From contig JBEKTW010000001.1 of assembly GCA_049515655.1 (NCBI GenBank), positions 419 to 64,418 on the forward strand: 64,000 nt of DNA, in the 5' to 3' direction. Of this stretch, positions 4,265 to 50,797 are shown piece after piece. Origin of the DNA: Bacteroidota bacterium (GTDB taxonomy: Bacteria; Bacteroidota; Ignavibacteria; UBA10030; SZUA-254). The notes beneath the pieces were generated by a model, which saw nothing but the letters and a program-made list of their open reading frames with translations, was not told the origin of the DNA and did not search any database. Each line of letters begins with the position of its first letter. The stretch's first letter is position 1. The translations under genes and the position numbers were made by a program.

Positions 4265-4468
4265 ACATGGAATCTACAAAAATATTTTAAAAAAGTCGAG
4301 TGCCCGCATCACTCAGAATGACCGGCGGCCGGTTGATTTCCATTCAAAACCGGAGTATATTGAACGAAAGAAAACAATAACGGTAACCCGTTCCAGGCCC
4401 GCAGTTGAGAAAGCAATCCTCGACTGGCGCCTTCGCCGGAGCCGGGTTGTCGGCGGATTCCCGCTACG

Positions 4469-5674
4469 ATGAACTCAAAGGACAAACGCTTGGGCCATAC
4501 TTTTTTTTCTCATCTTCGCTGCAGCCAATGTGATCGGACGTACGATCCGGTCAAAGTCCAAACAGTGTGCGGACAATGCAACAAGACTCTGCTTGCAGTG
4601 TATGATCTTGCTTCTGCGAAGAGGTCTCTTTCAATCCGGCAATTCTCAACTCGGGAGAAAGGTCTTTGGCGCTATCGGGAATTGCTCCCCGTGGTTGATG
4701 ATGCGTCCATCGTTTCTCTTGGTGAAGGGTGGACCCCGCTTCTCCAAGCGAAAACCTTGGGGAAAGAATTAGGACTCCGACATCTTTTCATCAAAGATGA
4801 AAGCCTGAATCCAACGGGATCGTTCAAGGCGCGAGGGCTCTGCGTGGCAGTTTCGAGGTTAAAGGAACTGGGGATCGCGGAGGTCGCGATGCCGTCCGCG
4901 GGCAATGCAGGCGGGGCACTCGCCGCCTACGCCGCGAAGGCCGGCATACAAGCGCATGTTTTTGTTCCGAACGACACGCCGGTCATCAACGTCAGGGAAA
5001 CGAGACTCTATGGCGCGGAAGTATTTATGGTTGACGGGGTCATTAGCGATGCAGGGAAAATAATGAATGAAATGCGGCAGGGGAAAAATTGGTTCGATAT
5101 GTCCACGATGAAGGAGCCGTACCGCCTTGAGGGGAAGAAAACGCTGGGCTATGAATTGGCTGAACAATTCGACTGGAAGCTTCCCGACGTCATTGTTTAC
5201 CCGACCGGCGGGGGGACCGGACTTATCGGGATGTGGAAGGCCTTCCGGGAAATGGAAGAGCTGGGATGGATCACAGGGAGAAAACCGAGAATGGTTGTCG
5301 TCCAATCGGCAGGTTGTGCGCCGATCGTGAAGGCCTTTGAGGACGGCAGGAAAGATTCGGAATTTTGGAATAATTCTGCCACTCTCGCATCCGGGTTGCG
5401 CGTGCCGAAAGCTTTTGCCGATGAATTGATCCTCTCCGCGGTTTATGAAAGCGGGGGGACGGCTGTTTCTGTGAACGACGATGAGCTCCTTGCCGATATG
5501 AAACTAGTAGCCCGGCAGGAGGGATTGCTGCTCTGTCCCGAGGGTGCTGCAACCGTTTCCGCTGTTCGTCATCTTTTGAAGAAGGGTTTCATTCAAGAGA
5601 ACGAGACGGTTGTCGCGTTCAACACCGGCTCGGGATATAAGTATGTGGAAGTCCTGGAACGGTTAGAGAAGTAA
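4469..5674 (+). CDS. threonine synthase family PLP-dependent enzyme with N-terminal zinc-ribbon
   Basis: 401 aa. N-terminal CxxC...CxxC ribbon (CSQCDRT...CGQCNK), then the ThrC-like core LGEGWTPL...NPTGSFKARG (PLP lysine motif) and a GGGTG glycine loop. Confidence 0.7.
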   Translation: MNSKDKRLGHTFFSHLRCSQCDRTYDPVKVQTVCGQCNKTLLAVYDLASAKRSLSIRQFSTREKGLWRYRELLPVVDDASIVSLGEGWTPLLQAKTLGKELGLRHLFIKDESLNPTGSFKARGLCVAVSRLKELGIAEVAMPSAGNAGGALAAYAAKAGIQAHVFVPNDTPVINVRETRLYGAEVFMVDGVISDAGKIMNEMRQGKNWFDMSTMKEPYRLEGKKTLGYELAEQFDWKLPDVIVYPTGGGTGLIGMWKAFREMEELGWITGRKPRMVVVQSAGCAPIVKAFEDGRKDSEFWNNSATLASGLRVPKAFADELILSAVYESGGTAVSVNDDELLADMKLVARQEGLLLCPEGAATVSAVRHLLKKGFIQENETVVAFNTGSGYKYVEVLERLEK

Positions 5675-12025: not shown

Positions 12026-13801
12026 GTGCTTCCGTTCCTTCGCAGAAATCTGATTTCCAGGCTGGGAGGTTTGGTACTGCTTTCCGTGTTAGTGTCGCAC
12101 GCCGACCAGCCGGCGGTTATTCGAGCCGTTAGCATCTCCGGCAATCATGCCCTGACCGTGAACCAGCTCATGGCAGTTATTACGGATAAACGGGGTTCCA
12201 CGTTTTCAAAGCTGCGGATCAATGTGGACGTCGCATCACTCCTCCAGCGATATCATGAAGATGGCTATTACTTCGCGACGGTGAGTCTCGTTCCTCCGGT
12301 CTTTTCCATCGACAGCGCGTTCGTCGACGTCGGTTTTACCATCGACGAAGGGGAGCAGACAAGCATTGGAACGATTGAACTCGAAGGGAATACAGCTTTC
12401 ACGCGGGATGAGATCCTTCAACAGCTCGAAACTCATCCCGGCGGATTTCTCGACCCCAGAGTGCTTGAACGCGATATTGACGCCCTGCTGACCCGCTATG
12501 AACGGCACGGCTATCCGTTTACCGATATCGCCGTCGAAGAAATCTCGCGGTATCAGGAAGAATCTGCCTCGAAACTGCGCGTCGTGCTGCACTTCGAAGA
12601 GGGCGAAAAGGTGACTATTGATGAAATCCACGTTGCGGGGAACAAAGAGACAAAAGAGCACGTCATTGTGCGCGAATCAGGCATCCGGCCCGGCGATTAC
12701 TATGACCAGGAAGAAATAGAAAAGATCCCGCAACGGCTCAACCGCATGAATATTTTCTCCCGCGTCGAAGAGCCCGAGTTCTTTGTAAAGAAATCCGGCT
12801 CCGGCGGCTTGCTTCTTTCAGTTCAGGAAGGGAATACCAGCACGTTCGACGGTATCATTGGATACGTCCCTGCCCCGACCGCTGACGCGCAGGGGTACGT
12901 GATGGGTTTAGTGAACGTGACGATGAGAAATCTCTTCGGGACGGCACGCAAGCTCAATGTTCATTGGCAGCGCGATGACCAGCTTTCGCAGGAGCTGTCG
13001 GCGCAGTACGTAGAGCCGTGGGTCGCCGACCTTCCCGTTGACGCGAGTGCCCTCTTCCAGCAGCGCCAGCAGGACACCACCTACGTTCGTCGTGCGTTCG
13101 AGCTGAAAGCCGACCTGCATGTTTCGGACGCGTTCACGGTCGGAGGAATTTTTGACCAGGAAAATGTCATTCCGTCAAGCACCCTGAGCGGCGTGGTATT
13201 GTCGAACAGCAGAACGGTGACGACAGGACTGGAACTCCGATACGATTCGCGTGACGATATCTTCAGCCCGACGAACGGCGTCAATTACCGCAGCGATTAC
13301 CAGTTCGGCAATAAAACCATCCTTGGCCAGCCAATCGATTCTGCATCGAAAACCAGCTTTACTGTTCAGAAGGTCAGCTTCGACGCTGAGTTTTTCGTAC
13401 AACCGTTCCTCCGCCAGGTCGTTGCCTTCGGCGTTCATGGTCGCCAGTTGACGAGCGACAATATCGACGTCGGGGACCTGTACCGCTTCGGGGGCGCGAC
13501 GACGATGCGTGGTTACCGGGAAAATCAGTTTCTCGGTTCGCGCGTCGGGTGGACGAATACGGAATACCGCTTCCTGCTCGCCCGGCGTTCCTACTTCCTT
13601 GTTTTTTTCGACACCGGTTATTACTTTCTACCGGGCGATGACGCTAAGGGGATTTCATCGATTGAAAATCTGAAGTACGGTTATGGCATCGGCATCCGGC
13701 TTGAATCGTCGCTCGGGAATATCGGCGTGAGTTTCGCGCTGGGGCAGGGTGACTCGTTCAGTCAGGGAAAAATCCACATCGGACTGATCAATGATTTCTG
13801 A
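12026..13801 (+). CDS. Omp85/BamA-family outer membrane protein (POTRA repeats plus beta-barrel)
   Basis: 591 aa. Signal peptide, repeated POTRA-like segments (VIRAVSISGN..., IGTIELEGNTAF..., IDEIHVAGNKETK...), and a C-terminal barrel ending ...IHIGLINDF. Confidence 0.7.
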   Translation: MLPFLRRNLISRLGGLVLLSVLVSHADQPAVIRAVSISGNHALTVNQLMAVITDKRGSTFSKLRINVDVASLLQRYHEDGYYFATVSLVPPVFSIDSAFVDVGFTIDEGEQTSIGTIELEGNTAFTRDEILQQLETHPGGFLDPRVLERDIDALLTRYERHGYPFTDIAVEEISRYQEESASKLRVVLHFEEGEKVTIDEIHVAGNKETKEHVIVRESGIRPGDYYDQEEIEKIPQRLNRMNIFSRVEEPEFFVKKSGSGGLLLSVQEGNTSTFDGIIGYVPAPTADAQGYVMGLVNVTMRNLFGTARKLNVHWQRDDQLSQELSAQYVEPWVADLPVDASALFQQRQQDTTYVRRAFELKADLHVSDAFTVGGIFDQENVIPSSTLSGVVLSNSRTVTTGLELRYDSRDDIFSPTNGVNYRSDYQFGNKTILGQPIDSASKTSFTVQKVSFDAEFFVQPFLRQVVAFGVHGRQLTSDNIDVGDLYRFGGATTMRGYRENQFLGSRVGWTNTEYRFLLARRSYFLVFFDTGYYFLPGDDAKGISSIENLKYGYGIGIRLESSLGNIGVSFALGQGDSFSQGKIHIGLINDF

Positions 13802-13935
13802 GCAATGATCAATGACCAATGACAAATAACAAATGACAGGAGTATTGGAGTGATGGAAGATGTAGATAATGAGATTATGAGTAGTTGAGATATGCCAAAA
13901 CGTTTTTTAATTTTGCATTTTTAATTTTTGATTGC
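13802..13935 (+). repeat. intergenic repeat family 1, copy A: (CAATGAC)-like heptamers plus a promoter-like core
   Basis: caatgatcaatgaccaatgacaaataacaaatgac followed by gttgagatatgccaaaacgttttttaattttgcatttttaatttttg. The core matches copies B and C and contains TAATTTTG, a Bacteroidota -7-like motif. It sits directly upstream of rnhB. Confidence 0.6.
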
Positions 13936-13962
13936 TGCGTACGTCATGGCAGGCAAGATAAA

Positions 13963-14580
13963 ATGGTAGACCTGGAATTCGAACGGAGACTTTGGTCGAA
14001 AGGAATTGGACTCATCGCGGGCGTCGATGAAGCCGGCAGGGGACCCTTGGCAGGTCCGGTCGTTGCGGCCGCGGTTGTATTTCCGGCGGACACCTGGATT
14101 GAAGGTGTAGATGATTCAAAAAAACTCTCTGCCGGCAAACGGGAACAGGTTTTCGAGCTGATCACTCAAAAAGCAGTGAGCGTTGGCATCGGTATCGTCC
14201 CGAATACCGTCATTGATAGAGTGAATATTTTCCAAGCTACTATGCAGGCAATGGCGGAAGCAGTGACGAAACTCTCATCCGCGCCCCAGCATCTGCTGGT
14301 CGATGGACCGCACTATCGCGACAGCACCATCCCGTGCACGAGAATTATCGATGGCGACGCAAAGAGTTTTACGATTGCTGCCGCTTCCATTATCGCAAAA
14401 GTCACAAGGGACCGGATCATGATCGAATACGACAAAGCCTGGCCTCAATACGGGTTCGCAAAACACAAGGGATACGGAACGAAGGAACACCGTGATGCGA
14501 TTCGCAAATTCGGTTCCTGTGAGCTCCACCGCCAGAGTTTCCGTTTGCCGGCAAGAATTCTTTCCGATGCGCATGAATAG
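13963..14580 (+). CDS. rnhB: ribonuclease HII
   Basis: Internal start MVDLEFERRLWSKGIGLIAGVDEAGRGPLAGPVVAAAVV carries the canonical RNase HII DEAGRGP motif. The upstream part of the track ORF lies within the repeat. Confidence 0.85.
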   Translation: MVDLEFERRLWSKGIGLIAGVDEAGRGPLAGPVVAAAVVFPADTWIEGVDDSKKLSAGKREQVFELITQKAVSVGIGIVPNTVIDRVNIFQATMQAMAEAVTKLSSAPQHLLVDGPHYRDSTIPCTRIIDGDAKSFTIAAASIIAKVTRDRIMIEYDKAWPQYGFAKHKGYGTKEHRDAIRKFGSCELHRQSFRLPARILSDAHE

Positions 14581-14923
14581 GCGTGCATGGGGCAAGGAAG
14601 GCGAGGACCGTGCCGTTGGTTTTCTGTTGAAAAAGGGTTACCGTATACTTGAACGAAACTTTCGATTCGAACGTGGTGAAATCGATATCGTCGCGGAAGA
14701 TGGTGAGACCCTGGTTTTTGTGGAGGTAAAATCACGCCGGTCGAAATCCTTTGGTGAAGCGGAAAACGCAATTTCGGTACACAAAAGAAAACAGTTGAGA
14801 AGAATAGCCGAGGGATATCTCTTCAAGAACAGTATTGACGGAAAAGCATGCCGGTTCGATGTCATTGGAGTCCAGTATGTTGGTAAGGAGACGGAGATTC
14901 GGCATCTGGTGGACGCGTTCTGA
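14567..14923 (+). CDS. yraN: YraN-family (UPF0102) endonuclease
   Basis: RAWGKEGEDRAVGFLLKKGYRILERNFRFERGEIDIVAED...LVFVEVK is typical of YraN. The start overlaps the rnhB stop. Confidence 0.75.
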   Translation: MRMNRRAWGKEGEDRAVGFLLKKGYRILERNFRFERGEIDIVAEDGETLVFVEVKSRRSKSFGEAENAISVHKRKQLRRIAEGYLFKNSIDGKACRFDVIGVQYVGKETEIRHLVDAF

Positions 14924-15151
14924 AAATAGAAGATAGGTGGTAGGTTATAGGTGGTAGGTGAATGGGTGAAACGGTGAGATGATGAGATAGGCCAGAACGT
15001 TTTTTAATTTTGAATTGATAGCTAATAGCTAAAGGCCAACGGCCAACAGCCCGAGGCAATGAGCAATGAACAATGAGTAATGACCAATGACCAATGACCA
15101 ATGACGAATGACCAAGAACCAAGAACTACGAACTAAGAACCAACTAACCCC
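14924..15151 (+). repeat. intergenic repeat family 1, copy B: full element (GGTAGGT array, core, CAATGAN array, AAGAAC array)
   Basis: ggtggtaggttataggtggtaggtgaatgggtgaaacggtgagatgatgagataggccagaacgttttttaattttgaattgatagctaatagctaaaggccaacggccaacagcccgaggcaatga, then about 13 heptamer units (caatgag, caatgac x4, caagaac ...) ending at the cstA start. Confidence 0.7.
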
Positions 15152-17005
15152 ATGAACGCCTTGCCCCTTGTTATTGCTGCCTTGTGCGTTATGGCGATCG
15201 CGTATCGTTATTACGGCGCGTTCCTCGCCGCGAAGGTTGTCGCCCTTGACGACGCGCGGGTAACGCCGGCGCATACGTTGTACGACGGTCAGAACTATCA
15301 TCCCACCAACAAATGGGTCTTGTTCGGACATCATTTCGCCGCCATATCCGGCGCGGGCCCGCTCATCGGGCCTGTGCTTGCGGCCCAGTTTGGATTCCTC
15401 CCGGGGTATTTGTGGCTGCTGATCGGCGTGTGTCTTGGCGGGGCAGTGCATGACTTTGTGATTCTTTCTGCGTCAATCAGGAGAAAAGGGAAATCGCTCG
15501 CCGAGATAGCCCGCAATGAGATCAGTCCGCTCGCCGGAATCATCGGCTCGGTCGCGATTCTTATCATCGTTGTGATTGCCCTTGCAGGTCTTGGCCTGGC
15601 TGTTGTGAATGCGCTGAGAGACAGCGCGTGGGGCACATTTACCATCGGCATGACCATTCCTGTTGCATTGTTTGTCGGACTTTGGATGTACCGCATCCGC
15701 CCGGGAAAGATTGTCGAGGCAAGCGTGATCGGTGTCGTGGCGGTCGTAGCCGCCGTCGTCGCCGGGGCGTGGATTCCGCAGTCGTCACTCGGGCAGTACT
15801 TCACGCTGTCACGAGAGGGTATCATTATTTCAATTGCAGTGTATGGATTCATTGCATCCGTCCTGCCGGTGTGGCTTTTGCTCGCTCCGCGGGATTATTT
15901 GAGCTCCTACATGAAAATAGGAACAATCGCCGCCCTCATCGTGGGTGTTATTGTCGTGCATCCCGACCTGAAAATGCCCGCGATGACGCAATTCGTGAAT
16001 GGCGGGGGTCCGATCGTCTCCGGAAAATTGTTTCCCTTTGTCTTCATCACCATTGCCTGTGGAGCGATCTCGGGGTTCCACGCGCTCGTGTCGTCCGGGA
16101 CGACTCCGAAGATGCTCAACCGTGAATCCGACGCGCGGATGATCGGCTACGGCGCGATGCTCATGGAAGGGGTCGTCGGAATTATTTCTTTGATCGCGGC
16201 ATGCTCGCTTTTTCCCGGAGATTATTTTGCCATCAACGCCTCGCCGGAAAAATTCGCAGCGCTTGGTTTACCGACCGTAAACCTCAGTCAGCTTTCTCAG
16301 GAGGTGGGGGAGAAGCTCGTTGCGCGGCCGGGGGGAGCTGTTTCGCTGGCGGTCGGCTTCGCGCAGATCTTTTCGGGTATCCCTGGCATGCGCAGCCTCA
16401 TGTCCTACTGGTATCATTTTGCGATCATGTTCGAGGCGCTGTTCATCCTCACGACGATCGATGCGGGGACCCGCATAGCGAGATTTCTCGTCCAGGAATT
16501 TGTAGGGAAAGTGTGGAAGCCGTTTGAGCGGACGAACTGGATGCCTGGAGCATTCATCGCGACCGCGGTGTCTGTCTTCGCCTGGGCCTATTTCATCTGG
16601 ACGGGAAGCATCAATACGATCTGGCCCATGTTCGGGACGGCAAACCAGTTGCTCGCGAGCGTCGCGCTTGCAGTGGGAACGAGCGCGATTATCAATTCGG
16701 GGAAGTCGCGCTACGCCTGGGTGACGCTGGTCCCCATGTTGTTTGTCGCAACGACGACATTGACGGCGTGCTGGTTGAATATTACCGATAGCTTTCTGCC
16801 GCTCATAAGGAACCCGGGGACGGAGCTGCAGGGCTCCGTCGATGCGATCCTGACTGCCGTTATCATGATATGCGCGGCGATCGTGCTGGTCGAGGCATTC
16901 CGGCGGTGGTACAGGGTGCTCGTCAAGCACGAATATTTGGTCGCGGGTGAGGTTATGTACGCCACTGACAGCAAGTTTACTCCTCCCGATTTTGGCTGCT
17001 GCTGA
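15152..17005 (+). CDS. cstA: carbon starvation protein A (peptide/pyruvate transporter family)
   Basis: 617-aa polytopic membrane protein. The N-terminus [29 protein letters not shown] and [19 protein letters not shown] are typical of CstA. Confidence 0.9.
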
Positions 17006-17334
17006 CCGGGACAACACCGTTCCTTCCCCGTTACCCTGAGCAAGTCCTGAGCGACCCCGAGCGAGCGTAGCGAGTCGAGGGGGAGTCGAAGGACGAGTCG
17101 AGGGGTGTCCGTCGGGTGGCCGGTCAGGGGACCGGCCTCTACGGCAGGGAAGCGCTTGCGGTGCGTTCTCCATCTCGATGACGCACACGCTTGACTTTTT
17201 AGGGTGTGCTTATTGTATTTACTCAACGCACTGAGTAGATTATCTCAATGTATTGAGTAAGTACGATGCCAAAAAGAAGGAATTTTGGCGCAAACAGCGC
17301 GGACTCAGTCGCTCAGGGAGGGCACGTGATCGCT

Positions 17335-18324
17335 CTATTTCTTTCCAATAATCTGCGTCACACCGAATGCCGTTTCTCTCCTGACAATCTTCGATAAGCC
17401 GGCCTCCTCCATCCATGACCGCACCTCGGATTCCGTATATGTATCTCCGGATCCTGTCCCGACGAGCATGTTCAGGGCGAAGAAGGCCCCGTGCAGGGGG
17501 GCCGTCCGGTCATCATCCATGATGAAATCCTGCACCACGACCCGCCCGTTCGGATTCAGAGCTCTCGCGCATTTCTTGATGAGCTTCCGGTTTTCGCTCT
17601 CGGAATTGCTGTGGACGATCGCGGAAAGAAACACTATGTCAAACCCCCTCCCGAGATCGTCCATCAGGTAATCGCCGGCTTGCAGCTCGACTTTCCCGGA
17701 GAGTTTCGCCTGCCTCACATACCGCTTCGTCAGCGGAAGAACATTCGGAAGGTCAAAAACGGTTGCAGTGATGCCTTCCTTCGCTTTCACAAAAGCCATT
17801 GCAAACGCGCCCGAGCCGCTGCCGACATCAAGCACGCGGGACACGCTCGAGAGGTCCATTTGAGCAACGACTGCCGGAGCCTGCTTCGCGGCCCGGTCGT
17901 GCATCGCAGCTATGAACGCGGTGAGCCACGTGTCGCCCCGGCTATTTATTTCCGGTCGCACTGCGACCGAGGTGCCTTTCCTAACTGCGGCAGTGAGTGT
18001 TGTCCATGTGTCCCACAGGTGAACGGTGTGCATCAAGCCGGATGTAAATTCCGGTTTACCCTTCACCAGAAATCGGGAGGCGACGGGGGTATTTTGGAAT
18101 CTTCCGTTCTTTTTTACCAGCATCTTCATCGCACAGAGAGCGTTCATCAATCTGTCCGTGGCGCGCGGGTCGGTCTTCAGCGCTCTTGCAACTTCCGAAG
18201 ATGACCTCTTCCGGTTGCCCAATTCGGTGAACACGCCGAGTTCGAATGCCGTCAGTAGAATCCGGCTGCTCTGAAAACGATATGCGATTTCTCTGATGAT
18301 GTTTGGAGATAAGGACTCCGTCAT
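17335..18324 (-). CDS. class I SAM-dependent O-methyltransferase (COMT-like, with dimerisation domain)
   Basis: 329 aa. N-terminal winged-helix dimerisation region, and the SAM motif VLDVGSGSGAFAMAF plus DIVFLSAIVH, as in plant and bacterial O-methyltransferases. Confidence 0.8.
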   Translation of the reverse strand: MTESLSPNIIREIAYRFQSSRILLTAFELGVFTELGNRKRSSSEVARALKTDPRATDRLMNALCAMKMLVKKNGRFQNTPVASRFLVKGKPEFTSGLMHTVHLWDTWTTLTAAVRKGTSVAVRPEINSRGDTWLTAFIAAMHDRAAKQAPAVVAQMDLSSVSRVLDVGSGSGAFAMAFVKAKEGITATVFDLPNVLPLTKRYVRQAKLSGKVELQAGDYLMDDLGRGFDIVFLSAIVHSNSESENRKLIKKCARALNPNGRVVVQDFIMDDDRTAPLHGAFFALNMLVGTGSGDTYTESEVRSWMEEAGLSKIVRRETAFGVTQIIGKK

Positions 18325-18641
18325 TGGTCATCGGTCATTGGTTGTTGGCTCTTAATTGAAAGTTGTCAGTTCTTGGTTGTTAGTTCTTAGTTGTTGGTCA
18401 CTAGTCAATAGTCATTCGTCATTGCTCATTGATCATTGCTTCGGGCTGTTGGCCTTTAGCTATTAGCTCTCAATTCAAAGTTAAAAAGTCAAAATTAAAA
18501 AACGCCTTCACATATCTCATAATCTCAACTACTCCATTAATCCATTTCTCCAACGATCATCTCGCCGTTTCACCCTTTCACCGGTTCTCCCCTTCACCCT
18601 TCGCCGATTCTCCCCATCACCTATCACCTACAATCTACCAC
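18325..18641 (-). repeat. intergenic repeat family 1, copy C (reverse orientation, so the same polarity relative to the downstream O-methyltransferase gene)
   Basis: The reverse complement reads ggtggtagattgtaggtgataggtga...gttgagattatgagatatgtgaaggcgttttttaattttgactttttaactttgaattgagagctaatagctaaaggccaacagcccgaagcaatgatcaatgagcaatgacgaatgac..., about 85-90% identical to copy B in the core. Confidence 0.7.
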
Positions 18642-21530
18642 CTACTTCCGTACTTCACTCGAAATCCATTCGAGGTACTTTTCCATCCTTGTGAGAAAAT
18701 TCAAATACGCCGTCGACCATTCGACAGGACTGGCCGGCTGGGATTTCCCCACCACATCCTGGAATAACTTGGCGACCACTACGGCAACTTTCTTTCTCCC
18801 TTCTTCCACGACCGCTTCCACGTCCGACGAATAAAAAACCTTCAGCGTATTGATGTCCCACCTCACGCGGGACTCGGGGGTGTGCTTCGCGAAGAACGAG
18901 AGGTCGGTCTTATCGCCGCCCGACATCTGGTAAATCAAGAGATCCCATTTGTGCATGTTGTCGCTGAAATTTTTCTCGTTTTGACAAAAGTCAATACGCA
19001 AACGCGACGCGGTCTGCTCCGTAGCGAGTGTGTGCCGGAACAGCGCTTCGCCCCCGACGTACTGGCTTAGCAAATCGATGTCAGTCCAGAGGCCGAGGAC
19101 GCGATTCACCGCAACGTAGGTTTCCAGCTCATAATTTCGTCCGCTCGCCAGCGCCTTTGAGCCGGCTTGCTGCTTCTCGAGCATTTTCATCTTAACTTCC
19201 GCCTCAATATCGCCTTTGGTCCGCTCGGTTTTGAACGTGTCTTCAGCTATCGACGGGGGAGGGGGCCCTTTCCGCGTATGTTCGAACAGTGGCGCGCGCT
19301 GGTGCCATTCCAACTGGTCGAACTTCTTGGCTGAGCCAGAGAACGAAGTGGTTGTCGTCGCGTGACCTTTGAGAAGCGTGAGCAGATTCGTGAATAGCCT
19401 GTCCTTGTATCGTGTTTGAAAATGGCTCATGTCGGCAAGGATATACACTTCTTCCTCAGCGGAGGCGAGGACCGATGCCAGAAGTCGCATGATAAACTGT
19501 TCTCCCGCTTTCTTGTCGTCGATCGGACGCATGGTGTAGTCGACACCCGACATCGTCGTATCGAAGATGATCGCCTTTTTCCGTCTTCCCACAAATCCCT
19601 GCGGCAAGCCGACTTCCACGTTGCGAATGCCGTGCAGCCGGAGCTGGAGTTTTGTCGAGAGTGTCGGACCGGGAAACGGCACGACGACACCGATGTCCCC
19701 GGCGATTCGATGCGGCTGCAGCAAGGCGTTCTTCACGCACTCGATCGTTTTCTTCGTCTGGAGGTCGTTGAACGGAAGGATCTTCTTTCTCCCGATATAT
19801 TGGCGGCATTTCGAATGAAGGTCGGTTGTGTCGATGAAATAGATTGTTCCGCGCGGCTTCACGGAAGCAGGGAGACTGATTTTTTCGGGAAACAATTTGG
19901 AAAGAAAAAAGTGAGAGAACTGCGGCTTCTCCGAATCCGGCGGAGAGAGAAAAACCGACGATTGTTGCTGCTGTTCTTTCCATTCAAAGAGCTGTGCGAG
20001 CTCGCGGGTTCCGGCAACCTGCACAAAGATGTCCTGCTGCAGCCAGCTCTGCGCCAGCTCCGATTTGGAGCAGGATTCCGGTTCGAGCTGAAATGGGTCT
20101 CCCGCGACGACCATCTGCCCCGACGAGCGAAGGGCGAGGACGGCAAGATGCGCCAGGTTGACGCGTTCCGCATTGTCGATGATAACAACGTCGAATTGCT
20201 GCGCACTAAAATGAGGGTCGGCAAGTGCCGTCGCGACCGTTGCGATGACCAGAGGTTTTGTCCGCAGCAGGTCGGAACGGTCGACCTTCAGGTATTCGTC
20301 CGCAGTCTGCATCACCCGGTCAATACCGCCAAGTTCGGTGATACGCTTCAGGGCGGATTGGTATTCCCTCAACCGTTCCGGCGTGACCGGAGCGTTGTTC
20401 TCCAGCTTTGATATCTCCGAGGCGATATTCTGTTGAATCGCCTGCAGTCTTTTTTGAGACGCGACTTTTTCGTCGCACTGTTTCTGCGTGACGACGGACT
20501 CATCTCTGCTGAAACCTTTCTTCATCCGTTCAAGCATGGAGGCGTTCTTCACCCGGTTGAGAGCATCCCGCAATTTCAGCAGTTCCTCGGAAATCTGAAG
20601 AACCTGCTGTTTCTTCTCGTCGAGCCTTTTGTTGAGGTCATCAAGTCGCGCACTGAAGTCTTCATGGAGGACCTGTTTAATTCTCGTCGACCGGTATGTG
20701 TCAAGCAGCGTGAAGACCTCCGGAAATTTCCTTCTCGTCTCGGCGTGAAGCGCCGAGGACTGGAGTTCAAGGGATACCTGACCGACTGTGGCAGAGTTCA
20801 GATCGAGCGGAAACCCTGCGCGCAGTGCGGAAGGAAGAATATTCACTCCGATCTGGTCGCCCGCGCGTGAAATTTCTTCCAGAAGGCCGTCGGCTCGCTC
20901 GCAGGTCTGCGTCAGATAGAGTACTCTTTTTCCGGCTTTCACGAAGTTCACGGTCGCCGAAGCCAGGATCTCCGACTCACCGGATCCGGATGGTCCCCAG
21001 AGAAACGTGACGCTGTTCCGTATCATTTTCCCGACCGCGTCCTGCTGATGGGGTGGCATGTCCGGAGGGAAGAGAGGCTCGACCGTCCCCTCGACGCCCA
21101 AGTTCTCTTCAAGTCCGAACAGCATCGAAGCGATCGGAGGCGGATCCTCGATTGAAGAAAGCAAGCCGATGACGGGTTTCATCTCTTCATCGAAATTCCA
21201 CGAGCACCGTACTTCGGGAATCACATGTCCGACATCCACCGGCAGCGCGACGACGACGAACTGGTTGCTGACGCTGACGATGCAGCCCTTCACCACGACC
21301 GGGTCCGAGTGCCCGAGCGTAAACGTGGCCTGGGTGACTGCCTGCAGCCACATATCCTCGGGAACTTCGAAGCGGTAGTAGTAATACTCGGCAAACGGGC
21401 CGAGGAACTCGCCGCTCACGAGTGTCGCCCCCCGGCGCGTGGTATTAAGCTGGTCGAGTTCGCCCTGAAGCGCCTGTGAAAGGATACCGTAAAGAGAACG
21501 AACCGCTTCTGCCCGCTGTTCTGAATTCAT
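18642..21530 (-). CDS. Upf1-like SF1B helicase homologue with degenerate ATPase motifs (pseudo-helicase) and a novel C-terminal extension
   Basis: 962 aa. Motif Q-Ia PHQQDAVGKMIRNSVTFLWGPSGSGES (Walker A GPPGTGKT becomes GPSGSGES, lysine to glutamate). Walker B VVIIDNAERV (catalytic glutamate becomes asparagine). Motif III GDPFQLEP is intact. Motif V/VI-like GVVVPF...AIIFDTT...RLLASVLASAEEEVYIL. There is an approximately 230-aa coiled-coil insert between Walker A and B, and an uncharacterised C-terminal tail of about 300 aa. Confidence 0.75.
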   Translation of the reverse strand: MNSEQRAEAVRSLYGILSQALQGELDQLNTTRRGATLVSGEFLGPFAEYYYYRFEVPEDMWLQAVTQATFTLGHSDPVVVKGCIVSVSNQFVVVALPVDVGHVIPEVRCSWNFDEEMKPVIGLLSSIEDPPPIASMLFGLEENLGVEGTVEPLFPPDMPPHQQDAVGKMIRNSVTFLWGPSGSGESEILASATVNFVKAGKRVLYLTQTCERADGLLEEISRAGDQIGVNILPSALRAGFPLDLNSATVGQVSLELQSSALHAETRRKFPEVFTLLDTYRSTRIKQVLHEDFSARLDDLNKRLDEKKQQVLQISEELLKLRDALNRVKNASMLERMKKGFSRDESVVTQKQCDEKVASQKRLQAIQQNIASEISKLENNAPVTPERLREYQSALKRITELGGIDRVMQTADEYLKVDRSDLLRTKPLVIATVATALADPHFSAQQFDVVIIDNAERVNLAHLAVLALRSSGQMVVAGDPFQLEPESCSKSELAQSWLQQDIFVQVAGTRELAQLFEWKEQQQQSSVFLSPPDSEKPQFSHFFLSKLFPEKISLPASVKPRGTIYFIDTTDLHSKCRQYIGRKKILPFNDLQTKKTIECVKNALLQPHRIAGDIGVVVPFPGPTLSTKLQLRLHGIRNVEVGLPQGFVGRRKKAIIFDTTMSGVDYTMRPIDDKKAGEQFIMRLLASVLASAEEEVYILADMSHFQTRYKDRLFTNLLTLLKGHATTTTSFSGSAKKFDQLEWHQRAPLFEHTRKGPPPPSIAEDTFKTERTKGDIEAEVKMKMLEKQQAGSKALASGRNYELETYVAVNRVLGLWTDIDLLSQYVGGEALFRHTLATEQTASRLRIDFCQNEKNFSDNMHKWDLLIYQMSGGDKTDLSFFAKHTPESRVRWDINTLKVFYSSDVEAVVEEGRKKVAVVVAKLFQDVVGKSQPASPVEWSTAYLNFLTRMEKYLEWISSEVRK

Positions 21531-25065: not shown

Positions 25066-27558
25066 ATGGCAAACAATCCATCTCCAGAAGACCAACAAAA
25101 ACGTGCCAATGACTACCTGATCGTTGTCCCCGATTTTATCAGGTTGAAGGATTACGACCTGGCACTCCTGCAAGTCGAACGCGCCCTTTCCATCGATCCC
25201 GGCAATGCCAAGGCCCTCGAGTACAGGAAGCGCATCATCGCCATCCAGGGGCGCCCTGCGCAGCCCCCTTCTCCTCCTCCCACGGCTGAAGTTAAACCGG
25301 ATGAAAAAGAAATCCTCCAGAGTCGTAAGCAGGAAAAATTGCGGGAGCTGGAGGAAGAGCGGAGAAGATTGGAGAAGATCAGGCAGGAATTCGAGGAACT
25401 CCAGCGGCAGGAGGAGGAGCTTCATAGAAAGGAGGAGGAGGAACGAAAACGGCGCATCGAGGAAGTTAGGAAAGTAGAGGAACAACGGCGCCTAGAGGAG
25501 GAGGAACGGCGGCAACTCCTGGAACTTAAGAGAAAAGAGGAAGAACAAAAACGACAGGAGGAGATGAGTAGAAAAAAGGAGGAAGAAGAACGTCTGCGCC
25601 GTGAGGAAGAAGAGCGGAAAAGACAGGAGGAACTGCGAAAGAAAGAGGAAGAAGAGGAACGGAGAAAACAAGAAGAATTGAAAAGGAAAGAGGAGGAAGA
25701 GCGGAAAAGGCAGGAGGAACTGCGAAAGAAGCAGGAAGAAGAGGAACGGAGAAAGCAGGAGGAACTGAAAAGGAAAGAGGAGGAAGAGCGGAAAAGGCAG
25801 GAGGAACTGCGAAGGAAGCAGGAAGAAGAAGAACGGAAAAAACAGGAAGAACTGAAGAGGAAACAGGAAGAAGAGCGCAGGAGGCAGGAAGAAGTCCGGA
25901 AAAAGCAGGAGGAAGAACGGCAGCGGAAAATCCAGGAACTGCAATCTCAGCTTGAAGGCCTGAAGCAGGAAGAAGAGCGGCAAAAGAAGCTGGAGGAAGA
26001 GGCCAGGATAAAACAACAGGAACAGGAAAAACGGCGACACGAGGAGCAGTCGCGCAGACATGAAGAAGAACGTCGGAGGGCTGAACAGCAGAAAAGAAAA
26101 GCCGCCGAACACAAGGCGAAAGAGGAGGAACAGAAGCGGAAGGAAGAGGAACTCCGCCGTCGCGAGGTCGAGCACTTGATCCAGATGGATCCGCTCAGGC
26201 GCCTTGAGGAAGAGACGCGTCTCGCGAAAGAAAAGAAAGACCGCGTCCATGCTCAAATCACAGTCGCGGAGGATTTCTTTAGCTCCGGCAACTATGAACA
26301 GGCAATGGCGGAATTGACGAAGATCTTGGAAGTCGACCCCTCGTATCCGCGGGCGTTGACGCTTCGTCTCCGCATAAAGCAAGCCGAGGAGAAACACAAG
26401 GAACGAGCGACAGCGAAGAATGGCGAAAAAACAGAACCGGTTGTGGAGACCGCTGCGGTGGTAGAGCCCGTGATCATAGAGAAGAATAAGGCTATGAGAA
26501 TCGTGAAGTGGACCGGAGGTGTGGTTCTCATCATCGTCGTCGGCATCATTGTCATGACGCAAATGAGGAGACGAAGTGGCCTGGAAGTCGCGCCCCAGAG
26601 CAAGCCGGCAGCCGAAGGCACGGTGGCGAAGCCTTCACCGGAGACGACAAAGACGCCGATCGCTACACCTGCCAGCGTTGTGCCGACCGTTACGGCGGAG
26701 GAACACGTCGCCCGCGCAAATCTTTTCATCCAGCATAGGTCGTATCAATCTGCGTTGCAGGAATTCGACAGCGCGGCCGCGCTTGCTCCGAAGAGGGTCG
26801 AGACGTTTGTCTCTCAAGCCGATGTCGATCTCAAGGTGGGCAAGTATCCCGACGCGATTAAAGCCCTCTCCCACGCAGCCGAACTTGTACCTCGTGATAC
26901 AACAATTCTTCTGATGACCGCCTTTGCCCACTACCTGAACGGTGCCTACGAAGACGGTTTCAAGTATCACGAGCAGGTATTGGCCCTAACGGTGGATTCA
27001 ATCAGGTACCTCGTGGGACCCGTTGCCGACGCGATTCTCTCCAGCAAGGCGCTCCTTGCAAAATATGGCGGTCGCGTCAAAGCCGCCTTTGAAGGAAGCA
27101 TGAGCGGAGCTCCCAACGACTTTGTCAACAGGTATCGCTATGCGAGACTCCTGCTGGCACTCGGCAGTACGAAAGAAGCGAATGACGTCTTGAAAAAAAA
27201 TGTCGACTACCTTGTTGAGGAATACCGGAATCATCCGGACGACGGGCTGATCACAATGTATCTCGCCCTCTCCATGACGCGGCAAGGACATTTTTCAGAG
27301 GCGGAAGGATTCGCGAAAGATGCCAAGGACCTTGCCCGGGGAAATCCGGAAATTCTCTATAAGATCGCCCAGATGTATGCACTCCAAATGCATTCGTCCC
27401 GGGGACAGGCAACCATCGCCCAAATGAAGAAGAAAGCGCTGCAGTCCGTTCACGAAGCTGTGAACCTGCGATTCATACTGAATGAACTAACCAACGCGGA
27501 CCTGTACAGCGTTTATGGCAAGGATTTCGTCGTCGCCGCTCGGCTCCCGCTAAAGTGA
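25066..27558 (+). CDS. single-pass membrane protein with highly repetitive E/R/K coiled-coil and C-terminal TPR domain (paralogue 2)
   Basis: 830 aa. N-terminal TPR-like unit (LLQVERALSIDPGNAKALEYRKRI), about 300 aa of (EEERKRQEELRKKQEEEERRKQEELKRK)n, a TM (VVLIIVVGIIVMTQM), and a C-terminal domain paralogous to the gene at 22765. Confidence 0.65.
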   Translation: MANNPSPEDQQKRANDYLIVVPDFIRLKDYDLALLQVERALSIDPGNAKALEYRKRIIAIQGRPAQPPSPPPTAEVKPDEKEILQSRKQEKLRELEEERRRLEKIRQEFEELQRQEEELHRKEEEERKRRIEEVRKVEEQRRLEEEERRQLLELKRKEEEQKRQEEMSRKKEEEERLRREEEERKRQEELRKKEEEEERRKQEELKRKEEEERKRQEELRKKQEEEERRKQEELKRKEEEERKRQEELRRKQEEEERKKQEELKRKQEEERRRQEEVRKKQEEERQRKIQELQSQLEGLKQEEERQKKLEEEARIKQQEQEKRRHEEQSRRHEEERRRAEQQKRKAAEHKAKEEEQKRKEEELRRREVEHLIQMDPLRRLEEETRLAKEKKDRVHAQITVAEDFFSSGNYEQAMAELTKILEVDPSYPRALTLRLRIKQAEEKHKERATAKNGEKTEPVVETAAVVEPVIIEKNKAMRIVKWTGGVVLIIVVGIIVMTQMRRRSGLEVAPQSKPAAEGTVAKPSPETTKTPIATPASVVPTVTAEEHVARANLFIQHRSYQSALQEFDSAAALAPKRVETFVSQADVDLKVGKYPDAIKALSHAAELVPRDTTILLMTAFAHYLNGAYEDGFKYHEQVLALTVDSIRYLVGPVADAILSSKALLAKYGGRVKAAFEGSMSGAPNDFVNRYRYARLLLALGSTKEANDVLKKNVDYLVEEYRNHPDDGLITMYLALSMTRQGHFSEAEGFAKDAKDLARGNPEILYKIAQMYALQMHSSRGQATIAQMKKKALQSVHEAVNLRFILNELTNADLYSVYGKDFVVAARLPLK
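25540..25910 (+). repeat. near-perfect 60-bp tandem repeats (about 5-6 copies) inside the CDS
   Basis: Units such as aggaggaactgcgaaagaagcaggaagaagaggaacggagaaagcaggaggaactgaaaaggaaagaggaggaagagcggaaaagg recur with only a few substitutions. They encode 20-aa E/R/K repeats. Confidence 0.8.
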
Positions 27559-47450: not shown

Positions 47451-47585
47451 AGGCACTACCACACTTTTCAGTGACTTGCTTTCTGCACTCTGAACCATTA
47501 TATTTCGAATGCGGGCGAACTTGACGCCCGGGAATCCGACAACCCTCTCATCCTTCGGGCGTGAGCGGGAGAGTTCTTTGAAACG

Positions 47586-47692
47586 ATGTTGTACGGGGTG
47601 CTCCGATCCTGTCATCGACGGGAATCGGGGCTGAGAGTATACCCTTGAACCTGATCTGGATAATACCAGCGTAGGAAATACGAATGATATTT
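47586..47692 (+). ncRNA. TPP (thiamine pyrophosphate) riboswitch
   Basis: gtacGGGGTGCtccgatcctgtcatcgacgggaatcGGGGCTGAGAGtatACCCTTGAACCTGATCTGGATAATACCAGCGTAGGAAata carries the THI-box core (CUGAGA...ACCUGAUCUGGAUAAUGCCAGCGUAGGGA, with one or two substitutions). Confidence 0.85.
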
Positions 47693-47696
47693 TTTT

Positions 47697-47777: not shown

Positions 47778-50081
47778 ATGAAATTGCGACCACGATTCCT
47801 TGGTGTCCTTGCAGCAATTCTTGTGAATTCTGTTTCAGGACAACAGGTCTCCAGAAACGACAAGGACACGTTGTATTACCTTTCTCCCGTCATCATCACG
47901 GCAACGCAGGCGAAAGAGCGCGAGACTCCGGCGACATTTTCCTCGTTCGACCGTCAACAGATCGTCGAGCGAACTACGGTGCAGGATGTACCTGCCGTGC
48001 TGTCCGAGCTTCCCTCGATCATCACCTATTCGGAGAACGGGAATGACATCGGGTACACGCATCTGAACATGCGTGGCTTTGACGAACGCCGCGTCGCGGT
48101 TATGGTCAACGGTGTTCCGCAAAACGACCCGGAAGACCACATCGTCTACTGGATCGATATGCCGGATTTGCTCGCATACACCCAGAATGTTCAGGTGATG
48201 CGCGGCGCGGGCAGCGATTTCTACGGCCCGCCGGCCATCGGCGGATCGATCAACTTCACAACGATGCCCCTCTCTTTGAAACCGGGTGTGGTGCTGAGCT
48301 CCGACGCCGGATTTCAGGAATACGGTGATGAGAAGAGAACGATCCTGAATACGCACAAGTATGGGCTTGCCTTGAATTCCGGCCTCGTCGACGGCAAGTA
48401 CATGCTTTTCGGCAACTTCTCCGCGGCCAGCAGCTCCGGTTATCGCCAGCATTCATGGACCGACGTGAACAGCTACTACATCGGCGCGGAGCGGCTCGAC
48501 GAATCGATGACGACGCGGATTGACATCTACGGTGGACCCTTACATGACGGCCTCGCGTATAATGGCATCCCGCGATTCTATAATAACGACTTTGCCCTGC
48601 GCCGCATTAACTACAATTACTTTGGATTGAATGCGGCGGGCGATTCCGTCCAGTACCCAACGCTCCGGAGACCGGAAGAGAATGAGAGTTTTTCCCAGCC
48701 GCACTATGAATTGCTCAATGAATGGAGAATCTCACCCGCGGTCAAGTTGTACAACACGTTTTTTTATATCGAAGGAAACGGGTACTTCGACTATGATGGA
48801 AGCTGGATCCCGTATCCCGACCCTCAAACGGGCAAACCGACACCCGCCATGCTGTACTTCATGCGCTACGTCGGCTATGATTCCACGTTCGGCTCCACGA
48901 CAGTTCCGGATTTTTTGATCCGCGCCTTTGTGGGCAATAAGCAATGGGGTTGGCTGCCGCGCTTCGACATCGACCACGGGTCGGGGACGTTAACGGTCGG
49001 CGGCGAGCTGCGCATCCATCGCTCCCTCCACTGGGGGAGTATTCCTTATGCCTCTGTCTATCCTCAGAACTATGAACCGGATTTTCATTTTTATCAGTTC
49101 AATGGAGAGAAGGATATGGCTTCACTCTACGGGCACGAGATTCTTCATGCGAGCGACCGGATGACGTTGATGGTGGACGTGCAGTTCGTCTACGACAGAT
49201 ATGGACTGGATAACGAAAAGTTTCTCGGAACATCGTTCAGCGTGCCGTATTTCTTCGTCAATCCACACGTCGGGTTGAATCAGAACTTCACCGACCAGCT
49301 CAACGGTTATGTCTCCGTGAGTCTGACATCACGGGAGCCGAGTTTGCCGAATCTCTACCAGGGCGAAGAAGCGTACTACGGCGCGACGCCGAGCTTTGAC
49401 ACGATGACCGCTGGGGGGAAATCGGTTCTCGATTTCAGCAAGCCGCTCGCAAGATCCGAACGCTTGCTAGACGTTGAAATGGGAAGCCATCTGACGTCAT
49501 CGGCGGGCAAGTTTTCAGCGAACCTATACTGGATGGAATTCAACGATGAATTGATCGACAACGGGCAGCTCGACGTGTTCGGCGTTCCGGTGACGGGCAA
49601 CGCCGACCGAACGCGGCATATCGGGCTCGAGCTGACGGCCCAGACGGCGGTCAGCAAAATGTTCGACCTGGGCGGAACGATGACGGTTTCACGCAACCGG
49701 CTGATCCGGTACACGGCGTATGACGATTCTTCACGCCCGGTTTCGCTCGACGGCAATCGCATCTCCGGTTTTCCCGAGTTCCTCGCGAACGCGCGCTTCG
49801 GTTATCATGAGGGACCGTTTACCGCGAGTCTCCACGGCAGGTACGTGGGCCCGTTTTACACAGACAACACATCCAACGAGCAACGCAAGGTCGATGCGTA
49901 CACGGTGTTCGACCTGGACGCATCGTACGGGCCGTATATTTTGACCCCGGGAGTCTCGGTCGCGATTCACGGGAAAGTGATCAATCTCTTCAACAGACTC
50001 TATCTCGCTGGCGGTCAGGGAATAGAATTCTTTCCGGCGGCAGAGCGGAGTTACCTCGTCGGACTTACGGTGGGATTGTGA
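47778..50081 (+). CDS. TonB-dependent outer-membrane receptor (putative thiamine/precursor importer)
   Basis: 767 aa with signal peptide, plug domain (TonB box-like DTLYYLSPVIITAT; ...NGVPQND...) and a beta-barrel. It lies directly downstream of the TPP riboswitch. Confidence 0.85.
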   Translation: MKLRPRFLGVLAAILVNSVSGQQVSRNDKDTLYYLSPVIITATQAKERETPATFSSFDRQQIVERTTVQDVPAVLSELPSIITYSENGNDIGYTHLNMRGFDERRVAVMVNGVPQNDPEDHIVYWIDMPDLLAYTQNVQVMRGAGSDFYGPPAIGGSINFTTMPLSLKPGVVLSSDAGFQEYGDEKRTILNTHKYGLALNSGLVDGKYMLFGNFSAASSSGYRQHSWTDVNSYYIGAERLDESMTTRIDIYGGPLHDGLAYNGIPRFYNNDFALRRINYNYFGLNAAGDSVQYPTLRRPEENESFSQPHYELLNEWRISPAVKLYNTFFYIEGNGYFDYDGSWIPYPDPQTGKPTPAMLYFMRYVGYDSTFGSTTVPDFLIRAFVGNKQWGWLPRFDIDHGSGTLTVGGELRIHRSLHWGSIPYASVYPQNYEPDFHFYQFNGEKDMASLYGHEILHASDRMTLMVDVQFVYDRYGLDNEKFLGTSFSVPYFFVNPHVGLNQNFTDQLNGYVSVSLTSREPSLPNLYQGEEAYYGATPSFDTMTAGGKSVLDFSKPLARSERLLDVEMGSHLTSSAGKFSANLYWMEFNDELIDNGQLDVFGVPVTGNADRTRHIGLELTAQTAVSKMFDLGGTMTVSRNRLIRYTAYDDSSRPVSLDGNRISGFPEFLANARFGYHEGPFTASLHGRYVGPFYTDNTSNEQRKVDAYTVFDLDASYGPYILTPGVSVAIHGKVINLFNRLYLAGGQGIEFFPAAERSYLVGLTVGL

Positions 50082-50082
50082 A

Positions 50083-50721: not shown

Positions 50722-50797
50722 CATTTCCTCAGCCCTCATTTCTCTAACCTCTAACCTCGAACCCCGAACCTCTAACCCCAAACCTCCAATCCTCCAC

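Follow-up and report, generated by a model that had tools for sequence, protein, structure and literature searches.

The three spacers and their shared core

The subject of this analysis is a short promoter-like core that occurs three times in a 64,000-nt stretch of DNA (the window), each time in an intergenic spacer: between bamA and rnhB (copy A), between yraN and cstA (copy B), and between a helicase-like gene and an O-methyltransferase gene (copy C). An earlier note on this DNA had drawn attention to the three copies; it had overlooked that the spacers themselves are degenerate tandem arrays of 7-nt units, laid from stop codon to start codon in one phase. The window, which comes from an uncultured Ignavibacteria genome (GTDB Bacteroidota), lies on Joint Genome Institute (JGI) metagenome contig Ga0427939_0000042 (294 kb). 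The named closest homologs of CstA, and of a symporter encoded elsewhere in the window, are from metagenome-assembled genomes (MAGs) annotated as Ignavibacteriales, Ignavibacteriae or Bacteroidota. The genes bounding the spacers are the following.

12026-13801, plus strand: bamA-like Omp85 gene, its TGA ending at 13801
13963-14580, plus strand: rnhB (RNase HII), Pfam RNase_HII
14573-14923, plus strand: yraN-like UPF0102 gene, overlapping the rnhB stop
15152-17005, plus strand: cstA, carbon starvation protein A family transporter
17335-18324, minus strand: O-methyltransferase gene, Pfam Dimerisation and Methyltransf_2, its ATG lying within a CAATGAC unit
18642-21530, minus strand: AAA_11 helicase-like gene

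The JGI call of rnhB (231 aa) starts at a TTG at 13885, inside core A, and the orthologs are 205 aa long. Judged by the fit to the Pfam domain, the true start is probably the ATG at 13963, the JGI call being an over-extension into the repeat. There is a practical side to this: gene callers stretch open reading frames (ORFs) into heptamer arrays, as with an rnhB start placed at the TTG of the core. The cores are composed as follows.

~13866-13936, plus strand: core copy A, upstream of rnhB; GAGTAGTTGAGATA, 8 nt, CGTTTTTTAATTTTG, then CATTTTTAATTTTTGATTG
~14965-15022, plus strand: core copy B, upstream of cstA; GAGATGATGAGATA, GGCCAGAA, CGTTTTTTAATTTTG, AATTG
~18470-18536, minus strand: core copy C, upstream of the O-methyltransferase gene; GAGTAGTTGAGATTATGAGATA, TGTGAAGG, CGTTTTTTAATTTTG, ACTTTTTAACTTTGAATTG

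The earlier note had described three copies in the same orientation as the rnhB, cstA and O-methyltransferase genes that they precede, and this we confirm: all lie within 5 kb, and the orientation rule holds in three of three. Similarity among them is beyond chance. The sequence ACGTTTTTTAATTTTG occurs three times in the window at no more than one mismatch, against 0.69 expected, blastn between the copies gives E-values of 1e-9 to 2e-31, and a core profile searched with nhmmer over the 64 kb recovers the three copies at E = 3e-16 to 2.5e-14 and no copy beyond A, B, and C. Pairwise matches cover 42 nt at 86% (A-B), 49 nt at 82% (A-C) and 144 nt at 76% (B-C). The core of about 90 bp that had been claimed for all three copies has to be shortened, since only about 50 nt are common to A, B, and C, namely GAGATA, 8 variable nt, then CGTTTTTTAATTTTG; the remainder is shared by B and C alone, whose similarity extends far past the core, nearly to the start codons. 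Copy A carries only the first ~55 nt of the claimed core and is missing AGCTAATAGCTAAAGGCCAAC...GCAATGA, and copy B is without the 14-nt ACTTTTTAAyTTTG. The arrangement of GAGATA, 8 variable nt and the invariant 15-mer CGTTTTTTAATTTTG was found in five paralogous copies from three genomes. An exact-pattern scan with GAGATANGNNNNNNCGTTTTTTAATTTTG of a metagenome contig collection to which the source sample does not belong returned two matches (loci L003 and L004); the one match to this pattern in 185,579 species genomes, among which the source species is evidently not represented, lies in a coding region of a Rhabdochlamydiaceae MAG and was judged to be chance.

The Bacteroidetes promoter consensus consists of a -33 TTTG and a -7 TANNTTTG, refined to TAHHTTTG with G at -5 (PMC6847099). 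All three cores contain TAATTTTG, a perfect match to TAnnTTTG and to TAHHTTTG, so that the -7 element noticed earlier is borne out in each of them (13908-13915 in A, 15005-15012 in B, 18497-18490 in C). In copy C another box, TAACTTTG, follows 14 nt downstream, at 18483-18476. Exactly 20 nt upstream of the box stands a wTG, as TTG at 13885-13887 in A, ATG at 14982-14984 in B, and ATG in C. With the geometry of Baez 2019, transcription start sites are predicted from the sequence near 13920 (A), 15017 (B), and 18485 and 18471 (C). A scan of sigma-70 promoters and intrinsic terminators, with a sigma-70 model that is unsuited to this phylum, stayed at or below shuffle expectation. The box spans two adjacent AT-rich units, TTTTTAA followed by TTTTGnn, and in this way the promoter-like segment is part of the arrays around it.

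Heptamer arrays: structure, turnover and probable copying

Tandem Repeats Finder (TRF) reports period-7 arrays at 13785-13933, 14933-15143, and 18320-18645. Period 7 is the only enriched period in sliding windows along the whole stretch, other periods among 3-12 giving zero, and it is likewise the sole enriched period in related loci, where the control periods give zero regions in nearly all. Lag-7 autocorrelation is 0.44 in spacer A, 0.62 in B, and 0.52 in C (z = 4.3, 12.0, and 10.2), compared with 0.16-0.31 in 23 further noncoding gaps of the window that measure 70 nt or more. Spacer B (14924-15154) divides in one phase into 33 heptamers: TAGGTGG, TTATAGG, GTGAAAC, GGTGAGA, TGATGAG, ATAGGCC, AGAACGT, TTTTTAA, TTTTGAA, TTGATAG, CTAATAG, CTAAAGG, CCAACGG, then, after further units, CAATGAC x4 and CAAGAAC x2, and at the end CCCCATG. 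Its adjacent units are alike at 4.28 of 7 positions, compared with 2.52 in random order, and similarity decays with distance; that neighboring units are more alike than distant ones is what would be expected of local duplication followed by mutation.

Unit order recurs between the spacers, from C-poor units (TAGGTGG, GGTGAAA, GAGATnA) through AT-rich units (TTTTTAA, TTTTGAn) and AGCTAAT/GGCCAAC to the A/C-rich CAATGAC/CAAGAAC that lead up to the ATG. Composition is accordingly asymmetric, with a C content of 0.01-0.06 in the units upstream of the core, and an A content of 0.43 and a C content of 0.24-0.27 in the leaders. The units are degenerate and intergrade, most period-7 TRF rows having 69-87% matches (two 2-copy rows have 100%), with about 10 unit types per spacer; the near-perfect repetition of a single unit that marks long simple sequence repeats (LSSRs) is not seen in these spacers. 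The arrays around the cores are listed here.

13785-13865, plus strand: array after the bamA stop, starting within the last bamA codons; CAATGAT/CAATGAC/AAATAAC, then C-poor GGAGTAT, GGAGTGA, GGAAGAT (TRF period 7)
14924-14990, plus strand: upstream array of spacer B, C-free (C content 0.01); TAGGTGG, TTATAGG, TGAATGG, GTGAAAC, GGTGAGA, TGATGAG (TRF)
15013-15151, plus strand: cstA leader array; AGCTAAT, GGCCAAC, CAATGAG, CAATGAC x4, CAAGAAC, up to ATG 15152 (A 0.43, C 0.27)
18325-18469, minus strand: O-methyltransferase leader array; sense-strand AGCTAAT, GGCCAAC, CAATGAn, CAACAAC, CAAGAAC
18537-18641, minus strand: upstream array of spacer C, between the helicase-like stop and the core; C-poor TAGGTGG, TAGGTGA, GGGGAGA, GGTGAAA, also with a 16/23-nt higher-order period

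The cstA, methyltransferase and symporter arrays are in forward orientation and end 0-6 nt from the ATG, with no Shine-Dalgarno sequence. The rnhB spacer differs, its arrays lying upstream of the core and not running to the start codon. The leader RNAs fold no better than their shuffles (z = -0.64 for cstA, -0.25 for the methyltransferase gene, and -1.30 for the third leader), and between 13600 and 18800 Rfam gave no match at E <= 1. The cstA leader contains 8 upstream AUGs in AUGA context, and in its CAAUGAC run every frame opened by an AUG ends 5 codons on, at a UGA overlapping a later AUG (AUGA). At the methyltransferase start (18322-18340, minus strand), three AUGs lie 7 nt apart in CAATGAC units, and an ORF of 91 aa in a different frame (18056-18331) begins at the middle AUG.

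How stable are these arrays among relatives? We ordered related loci by CstA identity: L006 at 99% (strain-level), L005 at 94%, L009 and L010 at 90%, and L007, L008, and L011 at 81-82%. L012, which comes from the same sample as L006, is for that reason counted among the strain-level relatives of the window genome, and L013 is part of the L005 genome, 210 kb from the L005 cstA locus. Between the window and L006, which have near-identical flanking genes, the spacers differ by indels of 21 nt in A (L006 being longer after the bamA stop), +14/-21 nt in B, and 7, 16, and 7 nt in C, the 16-nt change falling in the higher-order repeat. Such strain differences in 7-nt units are the signature of tandem-repeat dynamics, not of transposition. 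They amount to a repeat-number polymorphism at the promoter-like segment and leader of close strains: spacer B has one TAATTTTG box in the window and two in L006, through a 14-nt gain, and leader length differs by 7-21 nt. L005 has mosaics at all three orthologous sites that are longer and of other composition, and L009/L010 have spacers of 70 and 157 nt with heptamer traces only. In L007, L008, and L011 the gap is 8-14 nt between bamA and rnhB, so that rnhB adjoins bamA nearly gap-free, and 88 nt before cstA; these orthologous spacers have no period-7 regions and no core. The short, array-free spacers of these relatives make the mosaics a recent, lineage-specific gain. In L009/L010, a possible inverted AT-rich module behind the yraN stop was considered and set aside as too weak (blastn 31 nt; nhmmer E = 8.8). 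In L007 (11962-12528) and L008 (9927-10493), both without heptamer arrays, cstA is directly followed by a Y1_Tnp-like gene of IS200/RAYT type (REP-associated tyrosine transposase; weak Pfam hit).

Modules are also shared within genomes. In their promoter-proximal part, the spacers cluster by genome and not by locus: B and C of the window share AATTGAkAGCTAATAGCTAAAGGCCAAC(GGCCAAC)AGCCCGArGCAATGA, including AGCTAATAGCTAAAGGCCAAC, and B and C of L005 share instead ~55 nt, GCCCAGAGCCTTTrGCCATTAGC..GCTGTTGGyTAGAAACTGsCCGCAATGAC. Start-proximal units are conserved by locus, such as CTAAGAACTAACAACCAAGAACTGACAAC in C of both species. In blastn within each genome, B and C match at 76-78% over 144-162 nt (window and L005); between the window and its L005 orthologs the matches are 73% over 136 nt for B, 63% over 342 nt for C, and 27 nt only for A. 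The argument about paralogs and orthologs rests on the presence or absence of specific segments. A fourth site in relatives, beside a HAD hydrolase gene, has conserved flanks and a wholly different interior in each case. In L004 it is a 75-nt core with TAATTTTG. In L012 it is a 470-nt mosaic without the -7 box, and a separate TTG-N20-TACCTTTG site stands beside the gene. In L013 it is a 165-nt module ~95% identical to L005-B, at a distance of 210 kb, and partly shared with L005-A; none of the diagnostic segments of this L005/L013 module occurs in the window. Identity of ~95% at 210 kb points to copying between distant array-bearing spacers within one genome, for which recombination between arrays would be the simplest reading.

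Two further spacers of the relatives are recorded here. At 5390-5640 of L004, upstream of a LOG/TIGR00730-like gene, lies a heptamer mosaic that has GTAGTTGAGATGATGAGATAG and in which the AT-rich -7 segment is replaced by TGAGAAGCCCGGGGCGAGA, and L012 has the same box-less variant. L012 also has, at 4343-4799 between its HAD hydrolase and GFO_IDH genes, an insertion of ~430 nt with long inverted arms of TCTAAAC-type units and their complement, at a gap that measures 3-22 nt in L013 and L004; this insertion may be a separate hairpin-type element.

Heptamer arrays occur at one more locus of the window, in two forms.

50722-50797, plus strand: heptamer array without promoter core, CTCTAAC/CCCGAAC/CCCAAAC, filling the spacer from the thiamine pyrophosphokinase (TPK) gene to the ATG (50798) of an SSS symporter
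51826-51941, plus strand: in-frame CAATCCC array inside the symporter ORF (50798-52288), encoding the loop NLNSQSPILNPQSSIPNPQSSIPNPKSQIPNPKSS

The unit number of the TPK-symporter spacer varies in relatives (~8, 7, and 3). Across 18 aligned Ignavibacteria orthologs, the symporter loop is hypervariable both in its length and in its sequence; loop peptides such as EIRNPKS equal three GAAATCC units, and close relatives (L014 and L015) have other arrays, for example AATTCGA x4 in L015. A thiamine pyrophosphate (TPP) riboswitch at 47584-47695 (66 bits, the sole Rfam match in the window) precedes the TonB-dependent receptor gene, TPK gene and symporter gene (47778-52288), and from its position upstream the symporter may be a thiamine-related transporter in a riboswitch-controlled operon. 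Repeats of other kinds are present as well: a GC-rich 11-12-nt tandem repeat (GAGTCGAGGGG-like) at 17030-17110, in the convergent cstA/methyltransferase spacer, which in L005 contains an extra Laminin_G_3 gene; and an 87-nt (also 45/21-nt) tandem repeat at 25603-25917, encoding an E/K/R-rich low-complexity stretch in the ORF 25066-27558, whose orthologous gene calls have TPR-family Pfam hits.

Possible origin and function of the mosaics with a promoter-like core

The spacers are 7-nt periodic, they turn over in 7-nt steps, they were gained in one lineage and they share modules within a genome. We consider it reasonably probable that the three copies are the central promoter-like segments of heptanucleotide-repeat mosaics that fill three spacers, and that these mosaics have grown by slippage and by the copying of blocks between arrays. 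The arrays would grow by slipped-strand mispairing, and blocks would move from array to array by homologous recombination or gene conversion, the arrays supplying the homology. Through the TAATTTTG box with a wTG 20 nt upstream, transcription would start separately for rnhB-yraN, for cstA and for the methyltransferase gene, and the latter two genes would gain long, unstructured leaders free of Shine-Dalgarno sequences. Gain and loss of units would then shift the number of -7 boxes and the length of the leader, and so could tune expression.

Several points weigh against this interpretation. In global alignments of the leaders all pairs are 80-86% identical and paralogs are not separated from orthologs, global identities being uninformative where arrays are low in complexity, and gene conversion is suggested by patterns in the sequence only. 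The box-less mosaic of L012, upstream of a separate promoter-like site, shows that arrays need no promoter and are not always leaders. That the core would act as a housekeeping-sigma promoter of the Bacteroidota type is an argument from consensus: its -33 element is a weak match, wTG only rather than TTTG, the -33 motif having been reported as weak in Flavobacterium johnsoniae too (PMC6847099), and TAnnTTTG precedes only a few genes in the window. Finally, AUG trinucleotides are reported to be under-represented around start codons in Bacteroidetes (PMC6847099), and together with the many upstream AUGs of the CAATGAC leaders this argues against simple optimization of translation.

A bolder extension, possible in our view if doubtful, is that the arrays could be viewed as homology "landing pads" for promoter modules. 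AT-rich heptamers would make -7 boxes de novo, and recombination would create and move promoters, splitting an ancestral bamA-rnhB-yraN(-cstA) arrangement into separate transcription units, while the same repeat process would invade a protein loop.

Might the core instead be kept by selection as a shared operator and promoter, the arrays being incidental? A regulator bound to the direct repeat TGAGATnATGAGATA beside the -7 box would then control rnhB-yraN, cstA and the methyltransferase gene together. Two conserved blocks at either side of an 8-nt variable spacer, a 15-mer (CGTTTTTTAATTTTG) that is invariant in five paralogous copies from three genomes, retention of the core at L005-A and L005-C, and the clustering of the genes within 5 kb all speak for an operator. 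However, the blocks coincide with ordinary -33/-7 geometry, so that no extra factor is needed, and GAGATnA, a 7-nt unit in its own right, runs on into the neighboring array. The L005 cstA and rnhB spacers, moreover, carry another promoter-like module with no GAGATA beside its TAATTTTG, and no candidate regulator was found. We regard shared regulation through an operator as unlikely.

That arrays and TAATTTTG matches are neutral by-products of an expansion-prone repeat, with the real promoters elsewhere and the similarity devoid of regulatory meaning, also seems unlikely to us, even though an AT-rich heptamer array yields TAnnTTTG almost automatically and the L012 mosaic does without a -7 box. 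Arrays are found at any place that can tolerate them, be it behind a stop codon, between two cistrons or in a protein loop that varies, and they turn over fast between strains. Against neutrality, five paralogs agree throughout the 15-mer that includes the -7 box and differ freely in the 8 nt next to it, every core points at the next gene, and the spacers of former operon neighbors grew from 8-14 nt to more than 150 nt, which makes some consequence for transcription or termination likely.

The earlier note had read the copies as a mobile promoter cassette or an element like a miniature inverted-repeat transposable element (MITE). The within-genome spread of a promoter-bearing repeat is partly supported, by the 165-nt module at two sites 210 kb apart and by the genome-specific segments; the MITE nature is not. 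No inverted pair was found in A or B, and the one weak pair in C (21 nt, 81%) reaches into coding sequence. No flanking direct repeats were recognized as target duplications, there being no clean empty site at high identity for comparison. The ends of similarity differ pair by pair, and copy number is low, at 3 in 64 kb, all within 5 kb. The core had no match in plasmid and phage collections, no transposase adjoins the copies within the window, and no Y1 transposase occurs in the window neighborhood. Repetitive extragenic palindromes (REP/REPIN) are recognized by a stable hairpin together with a RAYT gene, and folding z-scores here are only -0.25 to -1.3. A discrete non-autonomous element, MITE-like or moved by some transposase or recombinase, carrying an outward promoter and having arrays as its preferred target or by-product, would account for copies co-oriented with downstream genes, for the fairly similar ends GAGTAGTTGAGAT ... 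TTTGAATTGAGA of A, C, and the L004 copy, for the fourth site in relatives and its ~95% identical module, and for the absence of the module from the orthologous spacers of distant relatives. The different left end of B adds to the absence of terminal inverted repeats, of recognizable target duplications and of an adjacent transposase in the window, to the very low copy number and to the strain differences in 7-nt units, and makes a discrete element decidedly unlikely.

We think it very improbable that the arrays are chiefly platforms on which a single-stranded nucleic acid-binding protein (cold-shock-domain or S1-like) steps along in 7-nt intervals to control translation or mRNA stability, with the promoter secondary: sense-oriented arrays do reach the start codons of cstA, the methyltransferase gene and the symporter, their leaders are unstructured, and TAACTGA repeats have been given the same explanation, with candidates S1, Csp, and CsrA (PMC4679880), but the units are too heterogeneous for a single binding motif (CAATGAC, CAAGAAC, CTCTAAC, CAATCCC, AGCTAAT), other arrays are placed ahead of promoters, behind stop codons or within a coding loop, and no binding protein was found.

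Relation to known heptamer repeats

Heptamer direct repeats, TAACTGA and others, have been described in Beggiatoaceae, cyanobacteria and five Bacteroidetes (MacGregor 2015, PMC4679880), and these intergenic repeats are the closest known phenomenon. Both sets lie in forward orientation just upstream of start codons with no Shine-Dalgarno sequence, in both close strains differ by indels in 7-nt steps and close relatives have shorter, repeat-free spacers, and in both some arrays are in frame inside ORFs. Elizabethkingia anophelis has near-identical intergenic regions with larger heptamer assemblages (PMC4679880), like the spacers here. Unlike the published repeats, the units of the window (CAATGAC, CAAGAAC, AGCTAAT, TAGGTGG, TTTTTAA) do not include TAACTGA and are far more degenerate, whole spacers are phase-coherent, and AT-rich units form a promoter-like -7 box. 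The host class is also different, Ignavibacteria, which receives no mention in the main text of PMC4679880. A role in translational control via S1, Csp or CsrA-like proteins has been proposed for the TAACTGA repeats (PMC4679880). Heptanucleotides are the most abundant LSSR class in most genomes according to Mrazek et al. 2007, as summarized in PMC4679880, with polymerase slippage over a footprint of ~7 nt as the proposed cause. So summarized, the slippage idea fits the 7-nt indels here; LSSRs are near-perfect runs of one unit, whereas here unit types intergrade and blocks are shared between loci.

In Nostoc PCC 7120, contiguous TTTTGAA/TTCAAAA repeats lie near promoters and start codons, and their deletion changed recF/recO reporter expression (bioRxiv 10.1101/2022.06.06.494920). 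The spacers resemble them in having heptamer arrays near promoters or start codons, and the TTTTGAA unit is found in both; unlike the cyanobacterial repeats, they belong to another phylum and another promoter type. The cyanobacterial short tandemly repeated repetitive (STRR) heptamer sequences reportedly go back to Mazel and coworkers in 1990. CAATGAC is a rotation of the complement of TTGGTCA, reportedly an STRR unit, and CAATCCC is a rotation of CCCCAAT, reportedly another.

Repeat number is known to matter elsewhere. TTTTGAT heptads in the Vibrio cholerae ctxAB promoter vary in number by strain and affect expression (bioRxiv 10.1101/2021.05.14.444153), as do AGAT repeats in the 5' untranslated region (5' UTR) of Moraxella uspA2, as cited in PMC4679880. 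The spacers are similar in having short tandem units in a putative promoter or 5' UTR, with -7 box number and leader length varying by strain. The ctx heptads are regulator-binding sites and not a core promoter element. With MITEs, REP/REPIN sequences and outward-facing mobile promoters the spacers have in common that they are short noncoding repeats at several intergenic sites, which keep an orientation to genes and resemble each other more within one genome than across species; unlike MITEs and REP/REPIN sequences they have no terminal inverted repeats or hairpin and no recognizable target duplication or fixed ends, their copy number is very low, and no RAYT or transposase gene is nearby in the window. 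The spacers are thus a further example of a known, unexplained class of heptamer repeat, which we did not find reported for this lineage in the literature searched.

Heptanucleotide repeats by promoters and start codons are known from cyanobacteria, giant sulfur bacteria and a few Bacteroidetes, without an established mechanism or function, and an Ignavibacteria lineage is added here. The comparative series, at CstA identities of 99%, 94%, 90%, and 81%, the last with the ancestral short spacers, follows the arrays from their origin through turnover in steps of 7 nt to an exchange of blocks between loci. A pair of AT-rich units is enough to form the -7 box of the phylum, and slippage would duplicate the box. 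Should the box be active, a phylum without Shine-Dalgarno-guided initiation would have here a simple way of making new promoters and of tuning expression from strain to strain.

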